Source: Minisyncoccia bacterium | GTDB taxonomy: Bacteria > Patescibacteriota > Minisyncoccia > UBA6257 > GWB1-50-10 | DNA length: 64,000 nucleotides | Assembly (NCBI GenBank): GCA_049997815.1 | Contig: JBEKVQ010000002.1 | Location: 10,483 to 74,482, forward strand | Reading direction: 5' to 3' | Translations under genes and position numbers: made by a program | Shown: positions 16,199 through 63,278 of the stretch, in pieces | Layout of the letters: each line of letters begins with the position of its first letter | Position numbering within the stretch: the first letter of the stretch is position 1 | The notes under the pieces: model-generated | Database searches by the model: none | What the model was told of the DNA's origin: nothing | The model's input: the letters and a program-made list of their open reading frames with translations, nothing else

Positions 16199-16327
16199 GT
16201 GGAGATGGCGAGAATTGGCCTCGCCTCTCGCTCTGCTCGGGCTGGCCACCGCCTCGCGTGCCTTCGGCACATGCTCCGGCGTTCAATTCCGCCCGCAAGA
16301 CAAGCAGTTGTCTTGCTCATCTCCCCA
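16199..16327 (-). repeat. ssrA-derived mini element: 19-bp direct copy of the tmRNA 3' end plus inverted/5'-like copy, bracketing about 95 bp with a perfect 9-bp hairpin
   Basis: gtggagatggcgagaattg occurs at 16199-16217 and again at the ssrA 3' end (16372-16390). catctcccca at 16318-16327 matches the reverse complement of the same acceptor strand (tmRNA 5'-end-like GGGGAGAUG on the minus strand). Internal hairpin GCAAGACAA-CUGC-UUGUCUUGC. Confidence 0.5.
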
Positions 16328-16372
16328 TGAAACCAAAATATCCATAGGCAAGCTATGGACATTTTGATTTGT

Positions 16373-16683
16373 GGAGATGGCGAGAATTGAACTCGCGTAC
16401 GGAACGATTCGGCAAACGTTTCTACAAGTTTATTCCCTCGGTTGCCCTTGGGACGGTTTTGCTTTCCTGTTTTAGCGAAGGATACGGAAAGCGGATCTCC
16501 TCCGCGAACTCACGATATGACACCGGTTGATCCCTAGTGAGTATCAGGGCCGATGCGGCATTACGCGAAGGCGAATGCCGGAGCTACCGTTTTGTTGGCA
16601 GTTATCTTAGAGGCCGTTTTAGTGAGCGGCCGCCTCAGCTTGCTGCGCCTGCGTCGTCTATCCCGTCGAAGCCGATCATCCCC
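16373..16683 (-). ncRNA. ssrA: tmRNA (ssrA), one-piece, about 311 nt, CCA not encoded
   Basis: Minus-strand 5' end GGGGAUGAUCGGCUUCGACGGGAUAGACG closely matches the tmRNA consensus (GGGGCUGAUUCUGGAUUCGACGGGAU in E. coli). 3' end GCGAG-UUCAAUU-CUCGC-CAUCUCC-A has a T-arm and an acceptor strand pairing with G3.U70. Internal reading frame GCC AAC AAA ACG GUA GCU CCG GCA UUC GCC UUC GCG UAA gives tag (A)NKTVAPAFAFA. Lies immediately downstream of smpB. Confidence 0.85.
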
Positions 16684-41355: not shown

Positions 41356-41730
41356 TTATAATTCAAATTTTCTTCCCTGATAATTCATCGCTTCTTGAAC
41401 AAGTAGTGCATCGTTTTTTGTGCTGTGCTTTATGGTGTGGCAGTTGGCACAGAGGAGCTCGCATTTTTTCAGTTCACTTTTTATCACTTCCCATTTTTTA
41501 TTCGCAACATTTCCTATTATAAAATCTTTCTTTTTAGGATTCGTATGGTGGAATTGAAGTGCAGCTTGATTACCGCGCCAACCACAATTCACACATTTCC
41601 CTCCAAGGTACTTTATGGCTGCCGCTTTGGTCCGAAATCTCCTTACCTTCGTGTTGCAAGAGCCGCATCTAGCCCTGCATCTGCTTTGGTAGTCTTTAAA
41701 CGCGTTGCCACACAATTTACATATCCTCAT
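41356..41730 (-). CDS. free-standing HNH endonuclease (Cys-rich, zinc-finger flanked)
   Basis: Multiple CxxC pairs and a C-terminal LLCANCHTIKH HNH core. AT-rich gene lying 90 bp from the intron-containing tRNA. Confidence 0.65.
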   Translation of the reverse strand: MRICKLCGNAFKDYQSRCRARCGSCNTKVRRFRTKAAAIKYLGGKCVNCGWRGNQAALQFHHTNPKKKDFIIGNVANKKWEVIKSELKKCELLCANCHTIKHSTKNDALLVQEAMNYQGRKFEL

Positions 41731-41818: not shown

Positions 41819-42112
41819 GCCGCGGTAGCTCAGTGGTAGAGCGCTACCCTAAACTCTTTGGGGCCTTCCGCAGTAATGTGGATTGAATAATTGGGTGAAT
41901 TCGGGGGAAACTTCTTAAAAGAAATAATCCCGAGCCAAGCTCTGATGGGATCCGTCAGTTGGCGGAGGTATCGGAGAAGGTGTAGAGACTAGTAGGTGAG
42001 TCCCAACGATAATCCTACGCAAGCGCCCAACTTCCTTTTAGAAGGAAGATGATATAGTCCAAGCAAACCTTGGAAGAGGTAGGCGTCGGGTGTTCGATTC
42101 ACCCCCGCGGCA
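41819..42112 (+). tRNA. tRNA-Phe (anticodon GAA) interrupted by a 222-nt group I intron in the anticodon loop
   Basis: 5' exon GCCGCGGUAGCUCAGUGGUAGAGCGCUACCCU (41819-41850). 3' exon GAAGAGGUAGGCGUCGGGUGUUCGAUUCACCCCCGCGGCA (42073-42112). The joined exons fold as a canonical tRNA that is very similar to E. coli tRNA-Phe. Confidence 0.75.
41851..42072 (+). ncRNA. group I (IC3-like) self-splicing intron
   Basis: Exon U33 precedes the 5' splice site, which can pair CCCU.GGGG with intron nt 10-13 (P1). The intron ends in G. Contains GAGCCAAGCU and AAGGUGUAGAGACUAGUAGG segments that closely match the P7/P3 cores of bacterial tRNA introns (for example Azoarcus/Anabaena). Confidence 0.7.
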
Positions 42113-42116
42113 CAAA

Positions 42117-43683: not shown

Positions 43684-43758
43684 GGTGCCTATGGTGTAAC
43701 GGTTAACACAGAAGTTTGTGGAACTTCTGATACGGGTTCGATTCCCGTTAGGCACCCA
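43684..43758 (+). tRNA. tRNA-His (anticodon GUG) with encoded G-1
   Basis: G-1 pairs with C73. Acceptor GUGCCUA/UAGGCAC; D-arm GUGU-AACGGUUA-ACAC; anticodon stem GAAGU/ACUUC with loop UUGUGGA; T-arm ACGGG-UUCGAUU-CCCGU. Confidence 0.85.
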
Positions 43759-43760
43759 GA

Positions 43761-43800
43761 TTGACAAATAGCACGAGGTGTGCTATTTTGTTTTCAGACA
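43761..43800 (+). promoter_or_regulatory. sigma-70-like promoter (TTGACA-17 nt-TATTTT) overlapped by a perfect 10-bp palindrome (CAAATAGCAC...GTGCTATTTG); candidate operator
   Basis: A near-identical 40-bp element recurs at 50250-50287 upstream of a second gene. Lies about 100 bp upstream of the REC-domain gene. Confidence 0.45.
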
Positions 43801-43897: not shown

Positions 43898-44674
43898 ATG
43901 CGTATTCTGATTGTTGATGATAGTGCTCTATGGATCAAGCATGGTAAGACCCTTCTCGAGCAAGCTGGCTATGAGGTGACGGGGTTGGTTGTCTCTGATC
44001 CCAAGCAGTTCACTTCGAAATCTCTGTCCGAGTCGGTGGCCGACGCGATCAAGGGGGTCGATGTGCTGATGATCGACAAGGATTTTGGTGAGGCCGTTAC
44101 CTCAACCCGTCTAATCTGTGTCGTTCGGCACAACTTCCCGAAACTTCCGATCGTCCGCTGGACCGGTGGGTACGATGACAAGCCGTACATGAATTATCTC
44201 GGTGTTACAAATATCGAGAAGCCCACCAAAAAGGATGAGGCCAAGTTCGTCGAGATCTTCAACGAGGCACTCGATAAGCAGAAGCTCATTCTCTCCGGCG
44301 CGATGGGGATATTCGCAGTGCTCGACGAGACGGTAGAACCCGACAAGTACGCGGCCGAAAACAAGGCAAGGCAGCTTAAGCAGATTGCCCAAATCGCCCA
44401 GTTGGCCAACAAAGATACCGTGGATTCGGACGATTGGAGGTATCCGTGGACGATCACTGGGGAACGCGCCGATATGACCAAGCACGAGTTTGGTCACTGT
44501 ATCTGCGACGGTATTCTCACAGCCGAAGATATTCGCCCCCATCTCTCTGCCTTGCAGAAGGTAATCGGAAAGTTTGAAGGCGCGGGTAAGATTGACGAGC
44601 GCTTCAAGATTTGTGCTGAGTTCATTAAGACTGGAAATCTGGACGAGCTCGAGCTAGTCCGGCGCTGTTACTGA
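43898..44674 (+). CDS. response-regulator receiver (REC) domain protein with an uncharacterised C-terminal domain
   Basis: MRILIVDDS...D.L..D phospho-acceptor pattern at the N-terminus. The C-terminal 130 aa have no recognisable HTH. No adjacent histidine kinase. Confidence 0.55.
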   Translation: MRILIVDDSALWIKHGKTLLEQAGYEVTGLVVSDPKQFTSKSLSESVADAIKGVDVLMIDKDFGEAVTSTRLICVVRHNFPKLPIVRWTGGYDDKPYMNYLGVTNIEKPTKKDEAKFVEIFNEALDKQKLILSGAMGIFAVLDETVEPDKYAAENKARQLKQIAQIAQLANKDTVDSDDWRYPWTITGERADMTKHEFGHCICDGILTAEDIRPHLSALQKVIGKFEGAGKIDERFKICAEFIKTGNLDELELVRRCY

Positions 44675-44885
44675 GATCGTTTTTAACGATGCAATAATCC
44701 TACCAGAGGGGAAAAATGAAACTCGATTACGGTTGAATACCTAACCGAACACTACGTGGAGCCCACTGCGTAGAAAGCAAAGACGAAAGTCATGAGCAAA
44801 AAGCCCGACAACAATGTTGGGCTTTGCTATTTCTGGTTATAACCAGATGAGATTTAACCTAGGTCCGGCGCACAGACCCGCTCTT

Positions 44886-44926
44886 TCTGCTGTATAATGG
44901 TTCTAACGTCCTCTACTACGCGACCC
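44886..44926 (+). repeat. array repeat copy R1 (TGTATAAT extended -10-like + core GGTTCTAACGTCCTCTACTACGCGACCC)
   Basis: One of 7 same-strand copies of the core found by eye (see findings). Confidence 0.6.
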
Positions 44927-44976
44927 AGCGATAAATCCAAGTATCTTTCAGGCATGGTCTGGTGTACCTTTAACGT

Positions 44977-45471
44977 ATGGGTGCAGATAAAAAAATTTTT
45001 CCAAACGTATGGTATGCCTCTGAGAAAAAGGTAAAAAGTGCCTCCAAATTTCTTGTCTTTAACGACAAGGGTTCGTTGGATTTCTCCGGAGAAAATATCC
45101 TATTTACAGGCAAGAAGAATACGATTCAAATCGGTAAATCAACCGTTAGGGGTATTTCCATGGTAAGCCAAGACATCAATTGGGTAACCTATATTATGAC
45201 GAACATTTTAGCCATAGCCGTATATTATTTTGTATTTACCTCCATATCTCATTTTGTATTCACTGGGGAAGACGTTGTCCTTTTAATTGTTTATTTTCTA
45301 ATCGCCAATGGATTTGGTTTATTGGTCGGTAAAAGCACTAAATGGATACTTGTCGAATATCTTGATAAGAACGGGAATCCGGGAAAGGCTTATTTTGCGG
45401 ATGGCTCAATGCGGGGATGGTCGGGTATATTCGGGGGGACGCGAAAAATCTACGATCTTATTAGGTCTTAA
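44977..45471 (+). CDS. hypothetical membrane protein
   Basis: Two central TM helices; no motif. Confidence 0.35.
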   Translation: MGADKKIFPNVWYASEKKVKSASKFLVFNDKGSLDFSGENILFTGKKNTIQIGKSTVRGISMVSQDINWVTYIMTNILAIAVYYFVFTSISHFVFTGEDVVLLIVYFLIANGFGLLVGKSTKWILVEYLDKNGNPGKAYFADGSMRGWSGIFGGTRKIYDLIRS

Positions 45472-45482
45472 AATACACCTTC

Positions 45483-45520
45483 GCTGTATAACAGTTCTAA
45501 CGTCCCCCACTACGCGACCC
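45483..45520 (+). repeat. array repeat copy R2 (GCTGTATAAC + core)
   Basis: Core GTTCTAACGTCCCCCACTACGCGACCC, located between convergent gene ends. Confidence 0.6.
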
Positions 45521-45562
45521 GGACAAAAAAACAATTTTCAATCAGCCAAAGAAACCTCTTCT

Positions 45563-46759
45563 CTACTTAGTGGTGTTATAGATGGCTTGGATCTCGGCGG
45601 CGGAGAGAGCGCGGTTGTAGATGCGGACGTCGTCGATAACTCCACTACCAAAGTCATCCCCTTTCCCAAAAAGAAGAGAACTTGTACTTGTATCAGTGAC
45701 ATATACCTGGGTACCGCTCGCTTTGAGCATTCCATTTAAATACCACGACCATATTGATCCTGAATAAGTAATGGTAAGAAAATTCCAAGATGTGGTGACT
45801 AAATTTGCCGCAGATGGACTAATATTATCTCTTTTATAGAGTATAGTACCGTTACTTATATAAAAAATTAAATATCCTTGCCCAGCAACACCCGAGTTCC
45901 CTTTGACAAGAATACCTGGATAACTGCCGATCAGTGTTATTTCCTTATACCAAAGCGAGATTGTAAAATCGGAATTTAATCGAAGGGTCAAGTTATCGGG
46001 AACGGACACATAATCATCCGTCCCATCGAAATTCCCCGCCTGTCCAATCTTGCCTCCCGTATAGTAGGAACCGTTGGTCAGAGAGCCATACCACGTCCCA
46101 TTGTTTCCGTTCCCAGATGAGTCATTGGGAGAGCCATCCAAAGGCCAGTAACCCACAAGTCCAGAGGTATTGAATAATGGTGATAAGGAAAGATTAGAAC
46201 CATAGGCTATGACTCCAGGCATATTCTGTATGGGAGGGTTGATCTGGAGGGCGGCCCGCTGTTTCTGTGATTCAGGAATAGCCGTCAGTTCCCAAGAGCC
46301 TCCTGATGTGTAGGTGTAGTACTGTCCGCTTGAGGTGGTATTTATGGGATCAATGGGAAGCCTGGAGAGAGGACTTCCGGATGAGATGAGGGTGAAGTTC
46401 ACAGGGATCCATCCTGTGCCGTCGACTCTCGAGGAGGAGGCGGTGGAAACGCAGGCGTATGCCCAGCCTGAAGGCAATGCGGGAAGGCCTAAGTTCGCAC
46501 AGGTAGGTGACGTGTCCGGAACTGACACATAGGTCGTTGAGGCGGTTCCGAGGGATTGGTTGTACTGGTCGACCTGGAAGAGATTGAGGGCACTGTTCAA
46601 GGACGCCAGATCGGAGAGACGAGTGGAGTCTCTAGCTTCTTTGAGGAGCTCAGCAGGATTGATGACGAGGATGACGGCGGTAGCCAAGACTCCGAGGATG
46701 GCTATCACTACCAGGAGCTCTATGAGGGTGAAGGAGGACTCGTTACGCCAGCTTGTCAT
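45563..46759 (-). CDS. type IV pilin-like protein with a C-terminal LamG/concanavalin-like domain
   Basis: N-terminal prepilin motif FTLIELLVVIAILGVLA. The C-terminal about 200 aa have a LamG-like pattern (...WYLNGML...DDVRIYNRALSAAEI). Confidence 0.7.
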   Translation of the reverse strand: MTSWRNESSFTLIELLVVIAILGVLATAVILVINPAELLKEARDSTRLSDLASLNSALNLFQVDQYNQSLGTASTTYVSVPDTSPTCANLGLPALPSGWAYACVSTASSSRVDGTGWIPVNFTLISSGSPLSRLPIDPINTTSSGQYYTYTSGGSWELTAIPESQKQRAALQINPPIQNMPGVIAYGSNLSLSPLFNTSGLVGYWPLDGSPNDSSGNGNNGTWYGSLTNGSYYTGGKIGQAGNFDGTDDYVSVPDNLTLRLNSDFTISLWYKEITLIGSYPGILVKGNSGVAGQGYLIFYISNGTILYKRDNISPSAANLVTTSWNFLTITYSGSIWSWYLNGMLKASGTQVYVTDTSTSSLLFGKGDDFGSGVIDDVRIYNRALSAAEIQAIYNTTK

Positions 46760-46819
46760 ATCTTGTTATTCTACATTGTCCTGATTCTGAACGTATACGC
46801 TCACGTTCGGTACGCAAAT

Positions 46820-46909
46820 CCTTCCCTCCAACCTTCTAACCACAGTTCTAACGTCCTCTACTACGCGACCTACCCAAAATTATCCCGATAGAATTAGGAC
46901 GGTTTTTTG
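46820..46909 (+). repeat. array repeat copy R3 (long form: CTCCCTCCAACC box + core + CCAAAATTATCC + degraded hairpin + T-run)
   Basis: Shares about 110 bp of collinear similarity with R4. Confidence 0.6.
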
Positions 46910-47008
46910 TCTCCGAGTGGGACGATGCCGGAACGAAAATTGAGGTGGGGAAATAAAAAACCGCCCTGCGATTTCGTAGGGCGATTCTGGTTAATTGATA
47001 AAGATAAA

Positions 47009-47470
47009 TCAATGACGGAATGAATTGAATTCGGCAACATGTTTAATGTATGCATCCCTGTCAAAAAACTTTACAATCGCATCGCGAAGTTTTTGAGAGG
47101 TCATACCGAATTGCTTCAACGTTTCAGGTGAAGATGTAATCTCCTTACTCTTCCCTTCATAATCATTGAAGTCATACACATATAATCCTTGAGGTCCAAC
47201 GCAGAGATTCGTCCCAAAACCTCCAAATGGGGTTTTTTCGCCTTCCCTAAGTGTAGCAATCGCCCCACCATTTGAAAGCTGTGCAAACTCTTGAATTTCG
47301 CGATCAGTATTAACCGACCGAAGAAATTCTTGAAACGATTCGTCATCTTTTGCGTCAAACCGTACTGCAGAATATCGCGTCTTTATAGCGTCAATGAGCT
47401 CATAAATCCTCATGGGTATTCTCCGTGCCGCGCTCCTCAATTCAAAACGATGTTTCAATTTGCTAATCAT
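47009..47470 (-). CDS. hypothetical protein
   Basis: Start taken at the internal Met (MISKLKHRF). No motif. Confidence 0.35.
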   Translation of the reverse strand: MISKLKHRFELRSAARRIPMRIYELIDAIKTRYSAVRFDAKDDESFQEFLRSVNTDREIQEFAQLSNGGAIATLREGEKTPFGGFGTNLCVGPQGLYVYDFNDYEGKSKEITSSPETLKQFGMTSQKLRDAIVKFFDRDAYIKHVAEFNSFRH

Positions 47471-47632
47471 ATGTGTCTCCTTCCCTTTTAGTTTGAAATG
47501 TACAGCTATTCTCAGTTTTCTAAATGTCAAAACTATAGCATGTGATTAGGCCAATGTCAAGGAACTATTTTCTGAGAGTTCACCTGAGATAGTTCTTTAT
47601 CTCGCCAAATATGGCACGCAAATCCTTCTAAA

Positions 47633-47992
47633 TCAAAATCCACCTAAGCCACCCAGATCGCTGCTTGTTGCCTGCTGGACCGCATTACTCAGCCATCGTT
47701 CCAAAATCACGAAACCTACCACTAGTGAGACTGCGGTGAGAACAATAATGATAATGCCGACTCGCCGTGCAGGCGGATATGAGCTGCGGACATACTTCAT
47801 GCCAGGCCAGAGACCAAGTGGTGGGAGGAAAATACTTAATAGATAAAGGCTGGTTTGCGCGAGCCAAGTCGTCGAGGGTGGTTTCTCTTTAAGATTCTTT
47901 CCGCAATTCGCACAGAAATACCATTCAGGAGAAATAGTTTGATGACACTGCGGGCAGAGAGATTGCATTTGCGGGAGATCCATAGAATCCAT
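47633..47992 (-). CDS. zinc-ribbon membrane protein
   Basis: CPQCHQ...CANCGK followed by two TM helices. Confidence 0.4.
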   Translation of the reverse strand: MDSMDLPQMQSLCPQCHQTISPEWYFCANCGKNLKEKPPSTTWLAQTSLYLLSIFLPPLGLWPGMKYVRSSYPPARRVGIIIIVLTAVSLVVGFVILERWLSNAVQQATSSDLGGLGGF

Positions 47993-48117
47993 TTTAACAT
48001 CAAGAGAGAGTCGAAAACAGTCTTATAGAGTGAAGTTGACTTCACTAGAAACCTCGGATATCGGGTGGTATATTGGCGTCAGTAAATCCACAATTTCACC
48101 AGAAAGGAGAATAGGGT

Positions 48118-48321
48118 ATGGCACAAAGGATAAGGAACACCGAAGAAAAGAAGAATGCAGAAATCATCAGAGCCGCGAATAAGGCGAGAAAGTCCTTTTT
48201 TGCCAATCAGGAGAAGACCGTTATAACCAAACTCAAAAAGGATGGTGCTTCCGAAGAAGTGATTCAAAAAATGAAAATCTTCATCGCACAGGGAATGACA
48301 ATCACCGGTGACGGCTGGTGA
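48118..48321 (+). CDS. small hypothetical protein (67 aa)
   Basis: AGGAGAAUAGGG ribosome-binding site 6 nt upstream; Lys-rich. Confidence 0.3.
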   Translation: MAQRIRNTEEKKNAEIIRAANKARKSFFANQEKTVITKLKKDGASEEVIQKMKIFIAQGMTITGDGW

Positions 48322-48357
48322 ACAATCCCTTTCCTAAGAAAAGCGAGAGGGAGCAAG

Positions 48358-48393
48358 AGCGGCCACGCGAGCAATCGGCGTGGCTCTTTATTT
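48358..48393 (+). terminator. terminator-like hairpin (GCCACGC-gagcaaucg-GCGUGGC followed by UCUUUAUUU)
   Basis: Inverted repeat after the small ORF. Confidence 0.4.
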
Positions 48394-48400
48394 CCCCAAA

Positions 48401-48490
48401 CCCCTCCCTCCAACCTCCCAATCTCAGTTCTAACGTCTTCCACTACGCGACCCATCCAAAATTATCCTGATAAAATCAGGATAATTTTTG
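48401..48490 (+). repeat. array repeat copy R4 (long form with perfect 10-bp hairpin AUUAUCCUGA-uaaaa-UCAGGAUAAU followed by UUUU)
   Basis: Core GTTCTAACGTCTTCCACTACGCGACCC. Confidence 0.6.
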
Positions 48491-48527
48491 TACTCCAGAT
48501 GGGGACATTTTGTTATACAATGAGTCC

Positions 48528-49154
48528 ATGAACCAAAAAGGATTCGCGCCAATTGTCGTCTTTCTCATCCTCTTGGGAATTCTCGTGGTTGGCGGGGGAG
48601 CGTGGTATTTATCCTCGAAAAACGTTCCGCCGCAGTCGGCTACTTCGGGACCTCAAACAGCAACCACTGCCAGCTCACAACCTCAGGACGCAACAGCTAA
48701 TTGGCCAGTACATACTGATGCAGCAAATGGATTTGAAATAAAATACCCAGCTGATTTTCCTGTCGAAGTGCTTGAAAGTAAGGATTTATCAGTCGATTTA
48801 CCCGGAACTTTTGGTGGTCGCTTCACTTATCAAGAGAACGCCCCCATCTCTTCGTCAACAACCGGAAGGGTCGCTTCCGAGACCGTGGGGGACTTCACAA
48901 TTGATTACTGGGCTCAATATGGAGGAATGGGATCCTGGGACACTGTAATTAACGCCTGGACAAAGCGGAATGGAAACTACTATATTATTTCTCTCAACCA
49001 CGAGTTTATATCCGGGGCCCCAGGTTTTACTCCCGACGTAACGGAAACTACATTGATTAGTAAGGCACTGAGTAATATGCATGACGGCACTAACACGTAT
49101 GTGAATATATTCCATCAAATCCTTTATACTTTCAGATTTGTTAATCCAAGCTAG
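48528..49154 (+). CDS. secreted/anchored hypothetical protein
   Basis: Start at MNQKGFAPIVVF (signal anchor), then a Ser/Thr/Gln-rich linker. Confidence 0.4.
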   Translation: MNQKGFAPIVVFLILLGILVVGGGAWYLSSKNVPPQSATSGPQTATTASSQPQDATANWPVHTDAANGFEIKYPADFPVEVLESKDLSVDLPGTFGGRFTYQENAPISSSTTGRVASETVGDFTIDYWAQYGGMGSWDTVINAWTKRNGNYYIISLNHEFISGAPGFTPDVTETTLISKALSNMHDGTNTYVNIFHQILYTFRFVNPS

Positions 49155-49162
49155 GCACACAA

Positions 49163-49267
49163 ACCTCCCCCCCCCGTATCACAGTTCTAACGTCCCTGCC
49201 TGCCGGCAGGCAGGCTTCACTACGCGACCCAAAGAAGATAACCCTGATTTATCAGGGTTGTTTTTAT
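49163..49267 (+). repeat. array repeat copy R5 (core split by a 20-bp perfect palindrome TGCCTGCCGGCAGGCAGGC; followed by hairpin AACCCUGA-uuua-UCAGGGUU and UUUUU)
   Basis: Core halves GTTCTAACGTCCC ... TCACTACGCGACCC. Confidence 0.6.
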
Positions 49268-49301
49268 ATCCTAAACGGAGTTCGATGTGCCTAACCTTGG
49301 G

Positions 49302-50066
49302 TTACCTGCTCTTCTTGTCTTCTTGAAGCATCTCAAGAGCCTCTTTTACGGTCGTCATAAACTGGGCGGGGAAAATGATCGTAGAATTCTTTTCCGTGGC
49401 AATTTCCGCCATTGTTTGGAGTGTACGAAGCTGGAGCGCGACTGGATGACTGGCAATGATATCAGCTGCTTGCCCTAATTTTTCAGCCGCCTGAAATTCA
49501 CCCTGCGCGGCAACGATCTTTGCCCGACGCTCACGTTCAGCTTCAGCCTCCTTTGCCATAGCGCGCTGCATGTTTTCCGGGAGCGTGACATCCTTAATCT
49601 CAACGGCGGTCACCTGAATGCCCCACGGCTCCGTGTGAACGTCGATCACGTTCTTTATTTTTTCGTTGATATCGATTGTCTGCGACAAGAATTGGTCGAG
49701 CATGAATTGACCCACGACGTTCCTGACCGTCGTTTGGCTAATCTGATTCACGGCATCGTGGACATTCTCAATCGCCACCACGGATTTCTGAGAGTCTACG
49801 ACGTGGTAGTAGGCGACTGCCGCTATATCTATCGAAACGTTGTCTTTCGTGATGATTTTCTGCGAAGGGATGTTCATGGTAACAGTCCGAAGTCCAACCC
49901 TTACCATTCTTTCAAAAATCGGGACGACGAAGATAAGTCCTGGACCACGTGTACCAACGAGACGGCCCAATCGGAAGATGACCCCGCGCTGATACTCTGT
50001 TATCACCTTTATTCCCAAAATCAGAAGGACGACGATGATGAGCACGATATACGTTAGGATATCCAT
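49302..50066 (-). CDS. SPFH/band-7 (stomatin/prohibitin-like) membrane protein
   Basis: N-terminal TM helix followed by an SPFH domain (...[24 protein letters not shown]...); C-terminal coiled coil [14 protein letters not shown]. Confidence 0.8.
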
Positions 50067-50195
50067 ACGTTCATAATATGCTACTAACGAATTTTAACAA
50101 TAGGGAAATCATTGACGCCTACTCCTTCTCTAAGATAGATCCCAACTTCGTCCCACTCGCAGAGGTGGTTTAGTCCATTCCAGGAACACAAACCA

Positions 50196-50243
50196 TTCTC
50201 TCCAACCCCCCAATCACATTTCTAACATCCCCCACTACGCGAC
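50196..50243 (+). repeat. array repeat copy R6 (CTCCAACCCCCCAATCACA + core variant TTTCTAACATCCCCCACTACGCGACCC)
   Basis: Followed immediately by the palindromic promoter element. Confidence 0.55.
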
Positions 50244-50249
50244 CCAATG

Positions 50250-50287
50250 TATTGACAAATAGTACAGAAATGTGCTATTCTGTTTTC
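50250..50287 (+). promoter_or_regulatory. second copy of the TTGACA-18 nt-TATTCT promoter with the CAAATAG...CTATTCTG palindrome
   Basis: Matches 43761-43800 over about 38 of 40 positions. Lies 45-80 bp upstream of gene 50331. Confidence 0.45.
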
Positions 50288-50330
50288 AGCTAATCAACCG
50301 GATTTTGACAACTAACGAGCGGAGGCAAAT

Positions 50331-51125
50331 ATGTTCCGACAATACAGAAAATGGTTGGTTGTTATTCTGGCAGTCACGCTGGGTGTATTACTTACCATTC
50401 ACCACAACAAGATTCTCGAAGAAAAGAGTTTGGTGAAGATGGCGGCTCTGTCGATCCCATCCAATGTAATCCTCGTTGAGACGGAGAACTTCATCCAACC
50501 GTTTCTAGGAAAGACCCTCATCGAGGTTCCTGTGAGCGAAGAATTCCTGCGGAATGCAAACGGTACGGTGTACTACAAGGTGTATACCCGTCAACCTGCG
50601 TTCAATGGTATTCATGATTGGATTCGCCTGTTCAGTATTCAGGGCGACGAGGTCACTTACAGCGACTGGGACAGCAGGGATGAAATTGTGGCGGTTATCC
50701 CGAATACGGCGGGTCTGCAGATCTACCGATACGAATTCCGTTACGAAAAGTATCTGTTTTGGTCCTGGCTGGCACCTATTCTTTGTTTCGGATTTGCTTG
50801 TGTCGCTCTATATTATTGCGTTCGCATAAGCAATCGGACGTCGAAAGGAAAGTCATTGCCATGCCCGACCCCAGGTTGTGGGGGTACGGCTTTTGATACC
50901 GGCAGAATCTATGACGAATCAATATTCTCGTTGGGTTTACCGATCTATCGGTGTCCAAAATGCCTTGGGAGAGGATTACTGCTCCACGATGGAGAAATAG
51001 ACAGATTCCTCTACGAATCGGGGGGTATCTACTTTTTCAACTTCCTTACGAGGATTTGGAGAAGATTCGTGAGGGCATGTTCTTTCGTTCTCAGATTTCC
51101 TTCTTTATCTAAATCAGGAACGTAG
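50331..51125 (+). CDS. hypothetical membrane protein with a C-terminal zinc-ribbon (CPTPGCGG ... CPKC)
   Basis: N-terminal TM helix, central TM helix, and a Cys cluster. Confidence 0.35.
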   Translation: MFRQYRKWLVVILAVTLGVLLTIHHNKILEEKSLVKMAALSIPSNVILVETENFIQPFLGKTLIEVPVSEEFLRNANGTVYYKVYTRQPAFNGIHDWIRLFSIQGDEVTYSDWDSRDEIVAVIPNTAGLQIYRYEFRYEKYLFWSWLAPILCFGFACVALYYCVRISNRTSKGKSLPCPTPGCGGTAFDTGRIYDESIFSLGLPIYRCPKCLGRGLLLHDGEIDRFLYESGGIYFFNFLTRIWRRFVRACSFVLRFPSLSKSGT

Positions 51126-51216
51126 TCAGGTGTCTACAAACATCAGGACCGAGCAGACCAACTGCTCCCGCATCGCCACCTCGGTATGGTGGCATTTTTA
51201 TTTCCCCAGATCCGGC

Positions 51217-51310
51217 ACACAACCCCCCCTTCAAATCCAGTATCATGGTTCTAACGCCTGCCTGCGCCATGCCTGCGTATGCAGGAGACAGGTCCTCTAC
51301 TACGCGACCC
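51217..51310 (+). repeat. array repeat copy R7 (core split by a 37-bp insertion containing the palindrome CCTGCGTATGCAGG)
   Basis: GGTTCTAACGCC ... TCTACTACGCGACCC. Confidence 0.55.
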
Positions 51311-51360
51311 AATTTATACAATACCCCCGCTAGCTGTGAGTTTTTTATTTTGTCGATGAT

Positions 51361-60485: not shown

Positions 60486-60611
60486 AAGATATCCACGGTC
60501 TTCTTTAGTGGTTCGAAAGAGGGGAATATTCACCCCTCTTTTGAATTAGCACTCAATATTGACTCTTGCTAATCTTATAAAAATCGCCTATCATCGGGTA
60601 TAATAAAACAA

Positions 60612-63278
60612 ATGCCGAATTTCCAACGTTTCACCATTAAGGCCCAGGAGGCGCTCCAGAACGCCCAAGAGTCGGTGGCCCGGTACAATCACGGGGAATT
60701 GAAAGCCCTCCATCTTTTGTCCGCGCTTTTAAGCGACGAGCAGACGCTCGTGCGGCCCCTTCTCGTGCGCTCGAACGTTAACGTCTCCGAGTTGGAACGT
60801 GCGACATCGGAAGCGCTCCAGAATTTTCCCAAGATATTCGCGGCTGGCGGCGTCGGCCAACTTTATCTTTCCCAGGAACTGATGAAGATTTTGGATAAGG
60901 CAGGCGAGATAGCGCTCAAATTCAAAGATGAATTCATCTCATGCGAACATTTACTCATGGCGCTTCTGGATGTCCCATCGTCGGCTCAGGAGCTTTTGAA
61001 CCGCTTCGGAGCGCGGAGGGAGGTTTTGGGACGAACGCTTGCTCAGCTTCGCGGTTCGGTCCGGGTTACGGACGAGACTCCGGAGAGCAAGTTCCAAGTT
61101 CTTGAGAAGTATGCGGTGAATCTCACCCAAAAAGCGCGGGATGGGAAACTGGACCCGGTCATCGGCCGCGAGGATGAACTCCGGCGCCTGATGCAGATAC
61201 TCTCCAGGCGGACGAAAAATAATCCAGTTCTCATTGGTGAACCGGGCGTGGGAAAGACCGCTATTGTGGAGGGCCTAGCCCAGAAGATAATTGCGGGCGA
61301 TATTCCCGAAACGCTCAAGAACAAGGAGGTTGTAATGCTCGACATTGGCTCTCTCGTCGCCGGCACCAAGTTCCGCGGAGAGTTTGAGGACCGCTTCAAG
61401 GCGTTTCTGAAAGAAGTTCAAAATTCGGAGGGGAAGATAATCCTTTTCATTGACGAAATTCATATGATAGTCGGAGCGGGCCAAGCCGAGGGCGCAATTG
61501 ATGCGGCAAACATGCTGAAGCCGGCCCTGGCGCGCGGCGAGCTTCATGCGATTGGCGCAACCACGCTCAAGGAATATCAAAAATACATCGAGAAGGATGC
61601 GGCCTTGGAGCGCCGTTTCCAACCGATCTTGGTTGAAGAGCCGACGGTGGAGGACTCCATCTCCATTCTCCGCGGGCTCAAGGAAAAATACGAAATGCAT
61701 CACGGTTTGAAGATTACGGATAACGCGATAATCGCAGCCGTGAATTTGGGCGCGCGCTATATTACGGATAGATTCTTGCCGGACAAGGCCGTGGACCTGA
61801 TAGACGAGGCGGCCGCGGCGAGGCGATTGGAATCGGATAGCTTGCCGCGCGAGATAGAGAAGGTTAGGAAGGAAATTACCCAGCTTGAGGTGGAAAAATC
61901 CGCCCTGATGAAGGAATCAAAAGGACAGCCCGGTAAGAAGAGCGTGAAAAAATCTCCGCGACTCAAGGAGGTGGAAAAAGAATTGAAGGGTTTGAAAGAA
62001 AGGAATGATGAACTCTCCGCCCAGTGGCAGGGAGAAAAAATCGGAGTGGAGAATCTCCATGACCTGCGGCGGGAGATAGAGGACTTGAAGCGAGCGGCCG
62101 AAGTGGCCGAGCGAGAGGGGAACTTCGACCGCGTGGCACAGATCCGCTACGGCGAGCTTCCCAAATCCGAAAAACGTTATTCTGATCTGGAGAAGAAGTA
62201 CGAAAACAAAACGAAGGCCAAGAAAAGCGCCGGCGGACATTTCATAAAAGAAACGGTGGATGAGGAAGACATTGCGGCCGTAGTTTCCCGGTGGACCGGG
62301 ATTCCGATGTCGCGGATGCTTGAATCCGAAATGAATAAATTATCCCGCATTGAAGAGGCCCTGGAGGAGCGAGTGGTCGGCCAAAAAGAAGCGATTGAGG
62401 CAGTTGCCAGAGCTCTTAGGCGCTCGCGCGCTGGCCTGGCTGACGAAGACCGCCCATCGGGCTCGTTCATGTTCCTGGGTCCCACGGGCGTAGGCAAGAC
62501 CGAGCTCGCCAGGGCTTTGGCCGAGTTCATGTTCAACGACGAAAAAGCGCTCGTGCGGATAGACATGTCCGAATACATGGAACGGCATGCGGTTTCGCGC
62601 CTAATAGGGTCCCCGCCCGGCTACGTCGGCCACGAAGAAGGCGGCCAGCTCACCGAGATAATCCGCCACCGGCCTTACAGCCTGATACTTTTTGATGAAA
62701 TTGAAAAAGCCCACCCCGAAGTGTTCAATATCCTTCTTCAGATGCTCGACAACGGTCGGCTCACCGATTCCAAGGGCAAGGTGGTGAATTTCAAGAATGC
62801 GGTCATCATTCTCACGTCGAATGTCGGAAGTGATTACTTCCGCGAGATGTCCGGTTTGGGTTTCAATTCCGGAAAGAGTGAGGAAGAATTTCAGAATAAG
62901 GAGGAAAAGTTCCGCGACCAGGTGATGGGAGCACTCCGCGATACCTTCCGTCCGGAATTTTTGAACCGCTTGGACGAAACGATCATATTCAACTCGCTCA
63001 CTCCGGCGGTGGTGGAAAAGATAGTGGATATCCAGCTCGAGGAGGTGAAAAAACGTCTGGCCGAGAAGGGGATGACCCTGAATATCCGGGCTGAGGTCAA
63101 GAAGTATCTGGTTCAAAACGGCTTTGATCCGGATTTCGGCGCCCGACCGGTAAAACGCCTCATCCAAAAAGTGATTGTGGACGCTCTGGCCGATAAAATA
63201 GTCCGGGGTTCGCTCAAAGATGGTCAAAAAATTAACGTCGTTCTTACGAAAGACAACCGGGTGGAAATTGCCCGCTAA
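60612..63278 (+). CDS. clpB: chaperone ClpB (Hsp100 disaggregase)
   Basis: Clp_N repeats; D1 has [15 protein letters not shown] and FIDEIH; a long coiled-coil M-domain; D2 has [11 protein letters not shown] and LFDEIEKAH. No ClpP-docking loop. Confidence 0.9.

Follow-up and report, generated by a model that had tools for sequence, protein, structure and literature searches.

A candidate promoter-hairpin module at the tRNA-His gene and in the adjoining repeat array of a Minisyncoccia bacterium

The DNA analyzed here, termed the window, is a 64,000-nt stretch of contig JBEKVQ010000002.1 from a Minisyncoccia bacterium (Patescibacteriota; GenBank assembly GCA_049997815.1), and all positions given below are those of the window unless stated otherwise. 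It carries two copies of a short element, E1 and E2, in which a promoter-like sequence is combined with an inverted repeat. E1 lies at the end of a tRNA-His gene and E2 further downstream among direct repeats, which places both in what we regard as a variable array anchored at tRNA-His. We conclude that the two copies are probably instances of a reusable promoter-hairpin module that heads variable and unrelated genes, often at the ends of tRNA genes, and that would act as a 'stop-and-restart' unit. This conclusion was drawn from the anatomy of the element, its membership in a family, the constraint on its spacing, its polarity towards genes, the unrelated cargo that it precedes and its association with tRNA genes or their remnants.

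Results

Two copies of one element in the window

The pattern ATTGACAAATAG(C/T)AC-n5/6-GTGCTATT(T/C)TGTTTTCAG has exactly two occurrences in the window (coordinates in Table 1), and no further match to either half was found in the 64 kb on both strands with 2-3 mismatches tolerated. In shuffled controls, the left half gave a mean of 0.49 matches and reached two matches in 5 of 100 shuffles, and the right half gave a mean of 0.11 and never reached two (0/100). A profile hidden Markov model (HMM) built from other genomes only, the window being left out, recovered E1 and E2 and no third copy, and this family HMM detected no degenerate extra copies after the array repeats R1, R2 and R7. The presence of two similar ~40-bp copies, claimed in an earlier reading of this DNA made from its letters alone (the sequence-only reading), was thus confirmed by pattern search, shuffles and family HMM. 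The sites then proposed are real, albeit displaced by 1-2 nt: the copies start at 43760 and 50251 and not at 43761 and 50250.

Both copies were scored as sigma-70-like, matching at 10 of the 12 hexamer positions, with a TG before the -10. Each has a perfect -35 (TTGACA), separated by 17 nt in E1 and 18 nt in E2 from a -10 that forms, together with its upstream extension, TGTGC-TATTTT (E1) or TGTGC-TATTCT (E2). The inverted repeat is perfect over 9 bp in E1 (AAATAGCAC/GTGCTATTT), where 10-12 pairs are reached only with a one-base bulge, and imperfect in E2 (AAATAGTAC/GTGCTATTC), which has one T.G pair and one mismatch. A repeat is therefore present as had been reported, but the perfect 10 bp assigned to both copies reduce to 9 bp in copy 1 only. 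E1 begins 3 nt past the end of tRNA-His and precedes by 110 nt the start of a gene with a putative receiver domain (hereafter REC); E2 begins 4 nt past the end of array repeat R6 and precedes by 51 nt a gene for a membrane protein, orf264.

The element belongs to a family found mainly in Patescibacteria

A metagenome scan with the pattern TTGACAAATAGNAC-n3-8-GTNCTATT yielded at least 118 loci with an element-like layout, compared with a chance expectation of ~10 loci that is a rough estimate only, since the size of the scanned metagenome collection is not given. The matches split by their variable pair into GAAC/GTTC (n4), which resembles LexA/Cheo-type boxes, GTACC/GGTAC, GGAC/GTCC and GCAC/GTGC. 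The class of the window copies is the last, a coherent group reading GCAC-n4-6-GTGC followed by TTTGTTTT(C/T)AG.

Genomes were also scanned with the pattern AAATAGCAC-n3-8-GTGCTATTT, in which no -35 is forced. Matches from Saccharibacteria, Falkowbacteria, Peribacteria and entries labelled 'Patescibacteria group' mostly carried TTGACA or a one-base variant of it, whereas those from outside Patescibacteria were mostly generic A-tract/hairpin/T-tract sites from many phyla without a -35. A few matches with a -35-like hexamer came from metagenome-assembled genomes labelled Gammaproteobacteria, Bdellovibrionales, Clostridia or Gilliamella. TTGACA was present as well in the additional copies found within the fetched loci, where it had not been forced. 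Similarity between the window and other genomes is limited to the 28-43 nt of the element, one exception (locus L110) reaching 60 nt, and the stem TAGCAC/GTGCTA is nearly invariant across distant Patescibacteria lineages. Among viral contigs, the element was found in one phage only, and the pattern of the R repeats described below was absent from the viral contigs searched. From these scans, we regard the GCAC/GTGC class as a widely reused module family found predominantly in Patescibacteria; common membership in it would account for the likeness of the two window copies.

A separate promoter class, TTGACAAATAGTACTAATAGTGCTATT (loci L039, L081, L111 and L120), always precedes a conserved 154-aa protein (MNPIK.YQIEVDEEVY...) and has more TAGTACTA boxes downstream. 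It has the appearance of a true operator system under autoregulation and is separate from the class to which the window copies belong.

Spacing, predicted start position and polarity fit a promoter

Promoter statistics were compiled on 59-62 non-redundant family members. The -35/-10 spacer measures 17 nt in 29 and 18 nt in 28 of 62 members (57/62 together), and the length of the A-run after TTGAC offsets that of the loop. The last loop base, immediately before GTGC, is T in 34/59 members and creates TGTG, the TRTG '-16' motif, while its mirror position at the start of the loop is A in only 18/59. After GTGCTATT, the consensus continues as tT.ttttt and then has an A in 34 of 59 members at position 9, where +1 is expected, so that a conserved A lies ~7 nt downstream of the -10.

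The element is also strongly oriented with respect to genes. An open reading frame (ORF) of at least 60 aa, preceded by a ribosome-binding site, starts on the same strand no more than 100 nt downstream of 35 of 53 elements (66%); the same test gave 3/51 (6%) in the reverse orientation and 144/1180 (12%) at random positions. With the limit widened to 300 nt, 46 of 57 elements precede such a start, mostly at a distance of 20-76 nt. What lies downstream is unrelated from member to member: 50 downstream proteins, many of them small membrane proteins, were nearly all singletons in an all-against-all BLAST, and orf264 is an ORFan with only identical copies among 5.8 billion proteins.

Orthologues of REC in other genomes have promoters of the form TTGACA-n14-TGCTATA(c/a)T with no left arm. 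Because these carry the same motif, the right arm can be read as the usual extended -10/-10 of this clade, and the left arm, complementary to the -10 region, appears to be the special feature of the element. The identification of the element as a sigma-70 promoter with an extended -10 is well supported by these features, and the -35, 17-18 nt spacer and -10 proposed in the sequence-only reading were borne out by spacing, extended -10, +1 A and polarity to the gene.

The element encodes a predicted hairpin

RNA of the + strand is predicted to form a 9-12 bp hairpin of -12.5 kcal/mol (z -3.4) in E1 and -11.7 kcal/mol (z -2.8) in E2, followed by the T-rich tail TTTTGTTTTC. E1 was also listed by a terminator scan, and its hairpin and T-run constitute the only terminator-like structure after tRNA-His. 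The C-to-T change of E2 preserves pairing, as G.U, on the + strand alone, the minus-strand fold of E2 being poor. Across the family, the loop varies in length and sequence, and the lengths of the left A-run and the right T-run are weakly correlated (rho 0.38, p 0.002). A same-strand frame ends just upstream of 38 of 49 elements, a proportion not clearly above general gene co-orientation.

Since the spacer holds the reverse complement of its own -10 region, the same unit would serve both as promoter and as hairpin with a T-rich run. We propose that each copy is a self-contained ~40-bp sigma-70 promoter with its start at the A ~7 nt past the -10, from which RNA polymerase would begin to transcribe the gene lying 40-110 nt further on (REC and orf264). 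Transcripts arriving from upstream, at E1 from tRNA-His, would fold the hairpin with its U-tract and stop. The T-rich -10 and discriminator would double as the U-tract, the left arm would exist to pair with them, and the whole would work as a compact 'stop-and-restart' insulator.

Another view would retain the second function only, the element being the intrinsic terminator of tRNA-His duplicated into the array and its promoter hexamers a by-product of A/T-rich flanks. This would account for a hairpin and T-run directly after tRNA-His, it finds a parallel in the similar A-tract/hairpin/T-tract that follows the transfer-messenger RNA (tmRNA) of the window, and generic matches to the palindrome outside Patescibacteria are indeed terminators. 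However, in the Patescibacteria copies TTGACA is fixed 17-18 nt from TATTTT and it is absent from generic terminators, gene starts 20-76 nt downstream are strongly associated on the same strand, and there is nothing for E2 to terminate, which makes this view highly improbable. The structure at the tmRNA (16371-16683) lies at 16290-16370 on the minus strand and consists of an A-tract, a 17-bp hairpin and a T-tract of -21.8 kcal/mol (folded 60-nt flank), in 'bidirectional terminator' style as in the hairpin of the element.

Is the palindrome an operator?

The sequence-only reading had interpreted the palindrome as a repressor operator overlapping the promoter. Stated in full, a dimeric repressor would bind there and REC, orf264 and others would be co-regulated, possibly as members of one regulon that controls variable surface or accessory genes throughout Patescibacteria. 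The inverted repeat does sit in the promoter spacer, between -35 and -10, which is the classic operator position; the GAAC-n4-GTTC and GTACC...GGTAC classes of the same scan look like genuine operator-promoter pairs of other phyla; the stem is near-invariant across distant lineages; and the half-site TAGCAC/GTGCTA is identical to that of CIRCE (controlling inverted repeat of chaperone expression), the HrcA operator TTAGCACTC-n9-GAGTGCTAA. Yet the loop between the half-sites is 4 nt long in 5, 5 nt in 33 and 6 nt in 19 of 59 members, and this distance tracks the promoter spacer rather than a fixed dimer geometry. The symmetry is broken as a promoter predicts (last loop base T 58%, first A 31%), the right arm amounts to the extended -10/-10 used generally in the clade, and no cognate regulator gene was found associated with the element. 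Because half-site spacing varies and the constraints are asymmetric, a dimeric repressor of fixed geometry is disfavoured, and because the left arm complements the -10 region and the spacing varies, a hairpin with T-run is favoured over a repressor site. An operator is not the interpretation that we favour, and we consider it unlikely. With at least 118 loci of element-like layout, moreover, this is no private operator of this genome, and the family members have promoter features.

HrcA itself is not a plausible binder, since a CIRCE-like inverted repeat of canonical spacing, TTAGCACTC-n9-TCTTGCTAA (3 mismatches, 60546-60572), lies in the same window 40 nt upstream of a clpB-like gene (60612-63278). 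The identity of the element with CIRCE was rejected: its TAGCAC-GTGCTA gap is 4-6 nt, compared with 13 in CIRCE, and none of the genes downstream encodes a chaperone.

A regulon linking the response regulator to the array, also proposed in the sequence-only reading, is not supported. REC has 47 homologues of 46-83% identity over the full length, the closest in Taylor-, Komeili- and Portnoybacteria. The palindrome is absent upstream of REC orthologues (six contigs with five different homologues), which have ordinary promoters instead, so that these orthologues do without the element; the downstream genes of the family are unrelated singletons and orf264 is an ORFan. Comparison of the REC orthologue contigs and of the SPFH gene of the array revealed no synteny with the window, no element and no R repeat. 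Different tRNAs (Ala, Met, Arg) lie 100-300 nt upstream of REC orthologues, or else an IS66 transposase is their neighbour, and no tRNA-end repeats were found around these orthologues. As for a DNA-binding output of REC, the N-terminus matches a receiver domain weakly (Pfam E=0.005, below cutoff; PDB profile E=0.008) and the C-terminal half has no match in Pfam, NCBIfam, PADLOC or PDB sequences, and no DNA-binding domain was detectable there. For this window, the practical outcome is negative: there is no evidence of a REC-controlled regulon.

The C-terminal half of REC has a conserved HExxH-like H196-E-x-x-H200 with a conserved Cys and Asp, which brings it closer to a metal site than to a DNA-binding fold and suggests a metal-dependent output domain. 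An invariant HE(F/L)GHC(I)CD motif and conserved cysteines (residues ~194-204, 239, 257) characterize the family. REC orthologues of other Parcubacteria share a ~190-nt 5' leader (...GATAAGACGGGAGAAAAAAGCGG...GTGAGTAGCGC...GCGCTACTCA...; L250:7840-8000, L251:7850-8000, L254:1975-2130) that is absent from the window REC gene and could be a structured regulatory leader.

The element and the tRNA-His array

The window forms part of a 395,735-bp metagenomic contig (Joint Genome Institute, JGI, 3300038425), and eight other assemblies carry sequence that is 99.9-100% identical. Features follow one another in the order tRNA-His, E1, REC, R1 to R6, E2, orf264, R7 and conserved genes (Table 1).

Table 1. 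Position of the element copies, their parts and the surrounding features in the window
Feature	Position	Strand	Remarks
Left half TTGACAAATAG(C/T)AC, copy 1	43761-43774	+	
Left half TTGACAAATAG(C/T)AC, copy 2	50252-50265	+	
Right half GTGCTATT(T/C)TGTTTTCAG, copy 1	43780-43797	+	
Right half GTGCTATT(T/C)TGTTTTCAG, copy 2	50272-50289	+	
tRNA-His (GTG)	43685..43757	+	ARAGORN; Rfam tRNA 66 bits
E1 (copy 1)	43760..43798	+	family HMM E=3.3e-11
E1 -35 TTGACA	43761-43766	+	
E1 left arm AAATAGCAC	43766-43774	+	
E1 loop GAGGT	43775-43779	+	
E1 right arm GTGCTATTT	43780-43788	+	contains extended -10 TG and part of -10
E1 extended -10 TG	43781-43782	+	
E1 -10 TATTTT	43784-43789	+	T-rich tract after it
E1 predicted start A	43796	+	
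REC gene	43898..44674	+	258 aa, downstream of E1; weak N-terminal receiver domain
GC-rich intrinsic-terminator-like hairpin	44800..44825	+	ends REC unit, just before R1
R1	44889..44927	+	core GGTTCTAACGTCCTCTACTACGCGACCCA
R2	45483..45521	+	
R3	46809..46872	+	C-rich 5' part
R4	48391..48454	+	then hairpin AAAATTATCCTGAT-aaa-ATCAGGATAATTTT
R5	49164..49231	+	GC-rich palindromic insert at 49191-49216
R6	50183..50246	+	E2 starts 4 nt after its end
E2 (copy 2)	50251..50290	+	family HMM E=1.9e-9
E2 -35 TTGACA	50252-50257	+	
E2 left arm AAATAGTAC	50257-50265	+	
E2 loop AGAAAT	50266-50271	+	
E2 right arm GTGCTATTC	50272-50280	+	
E2 extended -10 TG	50273-50274	+	
E2 -10 TATTCT	50276-50281	+	
E2 predicted start A	50288	+	
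orf264	50331..51125	+	264-aa membrane protein downstream of E2, two CxxC pairs
R7	51197..51311	+	hairpin insert; last repeat before conserved genes (glycosyltransferase, others)

R1-R7 are seven co-oriented direct repeats with the core GGTTCTAACGTCC(T/C)C(T/C)ACTACGCGACCCA, spread over 6.4 kb (44889-51311) and absent from the rest of the window and from the 9 kb that follow it. R3-R7 share the C-rich 5' part, R5 and R7 carry hairpin inserts, and each repeat has either a strong terminator before it or a hairpin and T-run after it. A search of 43.6-51.45 kb against Rfam (gathering, E<=1) gave only the tRNA and overlapping sub-threshold matches, so the repeats were not recognized as a known RNA. 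They separate units of 0.6-1.6 kb that are mostly single-gene and mostly ORFan, with genes on either strand: orf164; a LamG-pilin gene; orf173, orf119 and orf67; orf214; an SPFH protein gene; and orf264. Only the pilin and the SPFH protein were recognized by defence-system and NCBIfam scans. According to the family HMM, the element adjoins only two of the seven repeats. The palindrome inserted in R5 (CCTGCCTGCCGGCAGGCAGG, 49191-49216), to which one in R7 (51257-51292) is related, is 96% identical to a stretch of an unrelated metagenomic contig (L080:1052-1077); this GC-rich insert may be a small mobile hairpin.

The association of the element with tRNA genes extends to the family. Of 59 elements, 17 have a T-loop-like motif 8-48 nt before them, compared with 2.9% of random windows, and in different genomes the genes for tRNA-Asn, -His, -Gln, -Glu and -Met have the element directly behind them. 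At three loci (L079, L103 and L217) a tRNA-3'-end-like remnant and further copies of the element are repeated 2-3 kb downstream of the tRNA, an arrangement like that of R6 and E2 in the window. Such a remnant consists of a T-loop-like TTCNAAC, 5 nt, 5 extra nt and an acceptor-like end of 7 nt that matches the local tRNA, with which the remnant shares 8-16 nt.

Insertion at a tRNA end was observed directly in this species. Another tRNA of the window (~41819-42113), not called by ARAGORN, carries a group I intron (41841-42082, Rfam 69 bits) within its anticodon loop, and in the near-identical strain L001 a 2.3-kb insertion (L001:5894-8212) is located exactly at the 3' end of this tRNA (window ~42110). 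The inserted DNA starts with a hairpin and T-run, encodes an HTH_3 (Xre-type) protein, an HNH_5 protein and orf225 (225 aa), and ends in the R-like remnant CTTGGTTCCAACTGTTTCCTATGAGGGGCACA; this distal remnant is T-loop/acceptor-like (...GGTTCCAAC...GAGGGGCACA). An HNH-like ORF lies just upstream of the intron-containing tRNA on the minus strand (41356-41730). By its layout, the array at tRNA-His looks like stacked insertions next to a tRNA.

Points that weigh against the proposed module

Several points count against the reading of the element as a promoter-hairpin module heading genes inserted at tRNA ends. Promoter activity, termination and insertion history are what we infer from sequence features. 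Regarding the hairpin, a stem with only 3 G-C pairs would make a weak terminator. Upstream of E2, the SPFH gene is divergent and no gene runs in the direction of the element, so that termination at E2 would be idle unless R6 is transcribed. The asymmetry between T.G and C.A would be explained equally well by the G of the extended -10. Protein recognition or shared descent would account more readily than pairing alone for the strong conservation of the stem across distant Patescibacteria classes, and most stem positions were fixed by the search patterns.

Regarding insertion, no integrase or recombinase was found in ~75 kb: Pfam matches gave none from ~8 kb of the window to its end or over a further 9 kb. 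Near family members, 74 neighbouring proteins were scanned with Pfam and no recurrent integrase appeared. The similarity of the R repeats to the 3' half of tRNA-His is not significant (p 0.04-0.9). Two independent assemblies (L005 from JGI and L008 from Logan) lack, with an identical junction, the 2.8-kb segment 44732-47537 that holds the REC terminator, R1, orf164, R2, the pilin gene, R3 and orf173; neither break point falls at an R repeat, and no obvious repeat is seen at them.

A possible recombination site or cassette head

The element could conversely be one arm of a site-specific recombination site whose core is the tRNA 3' end, carried by integrase-less cassettes that stack behind tRNAs; its two copies would then be junction scars and their likeness to promoters secondary. 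The frequency of the element beside tRNA 3' ends or remnants, far above background, is what such a site would produce, as are the unit of remnant and element (with or without a leader) repeated at L079, L103 and L217, the confinement of the seven R repeats and their mostly single-gene units to 44.9-51.3 kb near tRNA-His, and the strain-specific 2.3-kb insertion with its remnant at the far end. An analogue exists in the tRNA islands of Prochlorococcus, where partial tRNAs are left by successive integrations (bioRxiv 10.1101/2020.12.28.424599). Against this stand the constraints on spacing, TG and +1 and the strict polarity to gene starts, which are promoter properties, as well as the lack of an integrase in the ~75 kb and near family members, the lack of significant similarity between R and tRNA-His, the absence of R and near absence of the element from viral contigs, the fact that only two of seven R repeats adjoin an element, and the only in-array variant, the loss of 44732-47537 in two assemblies, which does not end at R. 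Many elements, furthermore, have no tRNA-like sequence upstream (for example L052/L065, L170, L183 and L190), and that of L052/L065 directly follows the stop of a protein-coding gene, which we take to be rplU-like. Taken together, a role as recombination arm appears quite unlikely.

A bolder extension of the promoter-hairpin module, which we put forward as doubtful, is that Patescibacteria possess an integrase-less or trans-mobilised cassette system in which single-gene units insert behind tRNAs by means of a mimic of the tRNA 3' end. The T-loop-like and acceptor-like remnant would be this mimic and the 40-bp terminator-promoter module the head of each unit, the tRNA-His array being one such site with seven remnants and two intact heads. 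If true, such a system would provide these tiny genomes with integron-like shuffling and expression of ORFan surface or accessory genes.

Discussion

To our knowledge, next to nothing has been described of the transcription signals and genome plasticity of Patescibacteria (the candidate phyla radiation), which are mostly uncultured, and our literature search found nothing specific on their promoters or tRNA islands. As a promoter-hairpin module, the 40-bp unit would be a candidate for a strong, portable promoter now that genetic work on these organisms is emerging. It may equally mark the variable gene slots in their genomes, which probably serve host interaction, and offer a handle on how genes inserted next to tRNAs become expressed.

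Comparison with known systems

In operator-in-spacer promoters (LexA/Cheo-box GAAC-n4-GTTC, TetR-type), a palindrome lies between -35 and -10 as in the element, and sites of this kind from other phyla were recovered by the element's own search pattern; unlike them, the element has a variable half-site spacing, no regulator and downstream genes that are not orthologous.

Integron cassette arrays resemble the window array in having co-oriented repeats between mostly single ORFan genes. An integron attC site carries the inverted core sites RYYYAAC ... GTTRRRY, which form a hairpin, and integrons encode intI. The R repeats, in contrast, lack R''/R' core sites and an attC-type hairpin, the genes are found on either strand and no intI was detected; with no complementary or inverted core sites, an attC reading of R was rejected.

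The Gram-positive sigma-70 extended -10, or '-16 region', is TRTGnTATAAT. With such promoters the element shares TTGACA, a 17-18 nt spacer, TGTG-C, A2 and T6 of the -10 and a purine start ~7 nt downstream. It differs from them in its T-rich -10 (TATTTT/TATTCT), in a spacer that is not free but holds the complement of the -10 region, and in the near-identity of the whole 40-bp unit across distant lineages and before unrelated genes.

Like the tRNA-anchored islands (tycheposon islands of Prochlorococcus and accretion arrays), the window array has a tRNA at one end, small variable cargo units and short direct repeats of T-loop/acceptor-like shape, and its species shows a strain-specific insertion at another tRNA 3' end. 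Unlike those islands, it lacks integrases and other mobility genes both inside it and in its vicinity, its repeats are not significantly similar to tRNA-His, its units are single-gene and of 0.6-1.6 kb, and no excision variants were seen at repeat boundaries.

Mobile promoters, finally, are highly similar promoters found upstream of non-homologous genes (PMC3575422), and the element likewise is one short promoter placed before unrelated genes within and across genomes. It is distinguished from them by its size of ~40 bp, its internal hairpin, its spread over much of one phylum, its link to tRNA 3' ends or remnants and the lack of a visible transposon carrier. On these comparisons, we relate the element to three known kinds, the extended -10 promoter, the reused promoter and the tRNA-anchored island.

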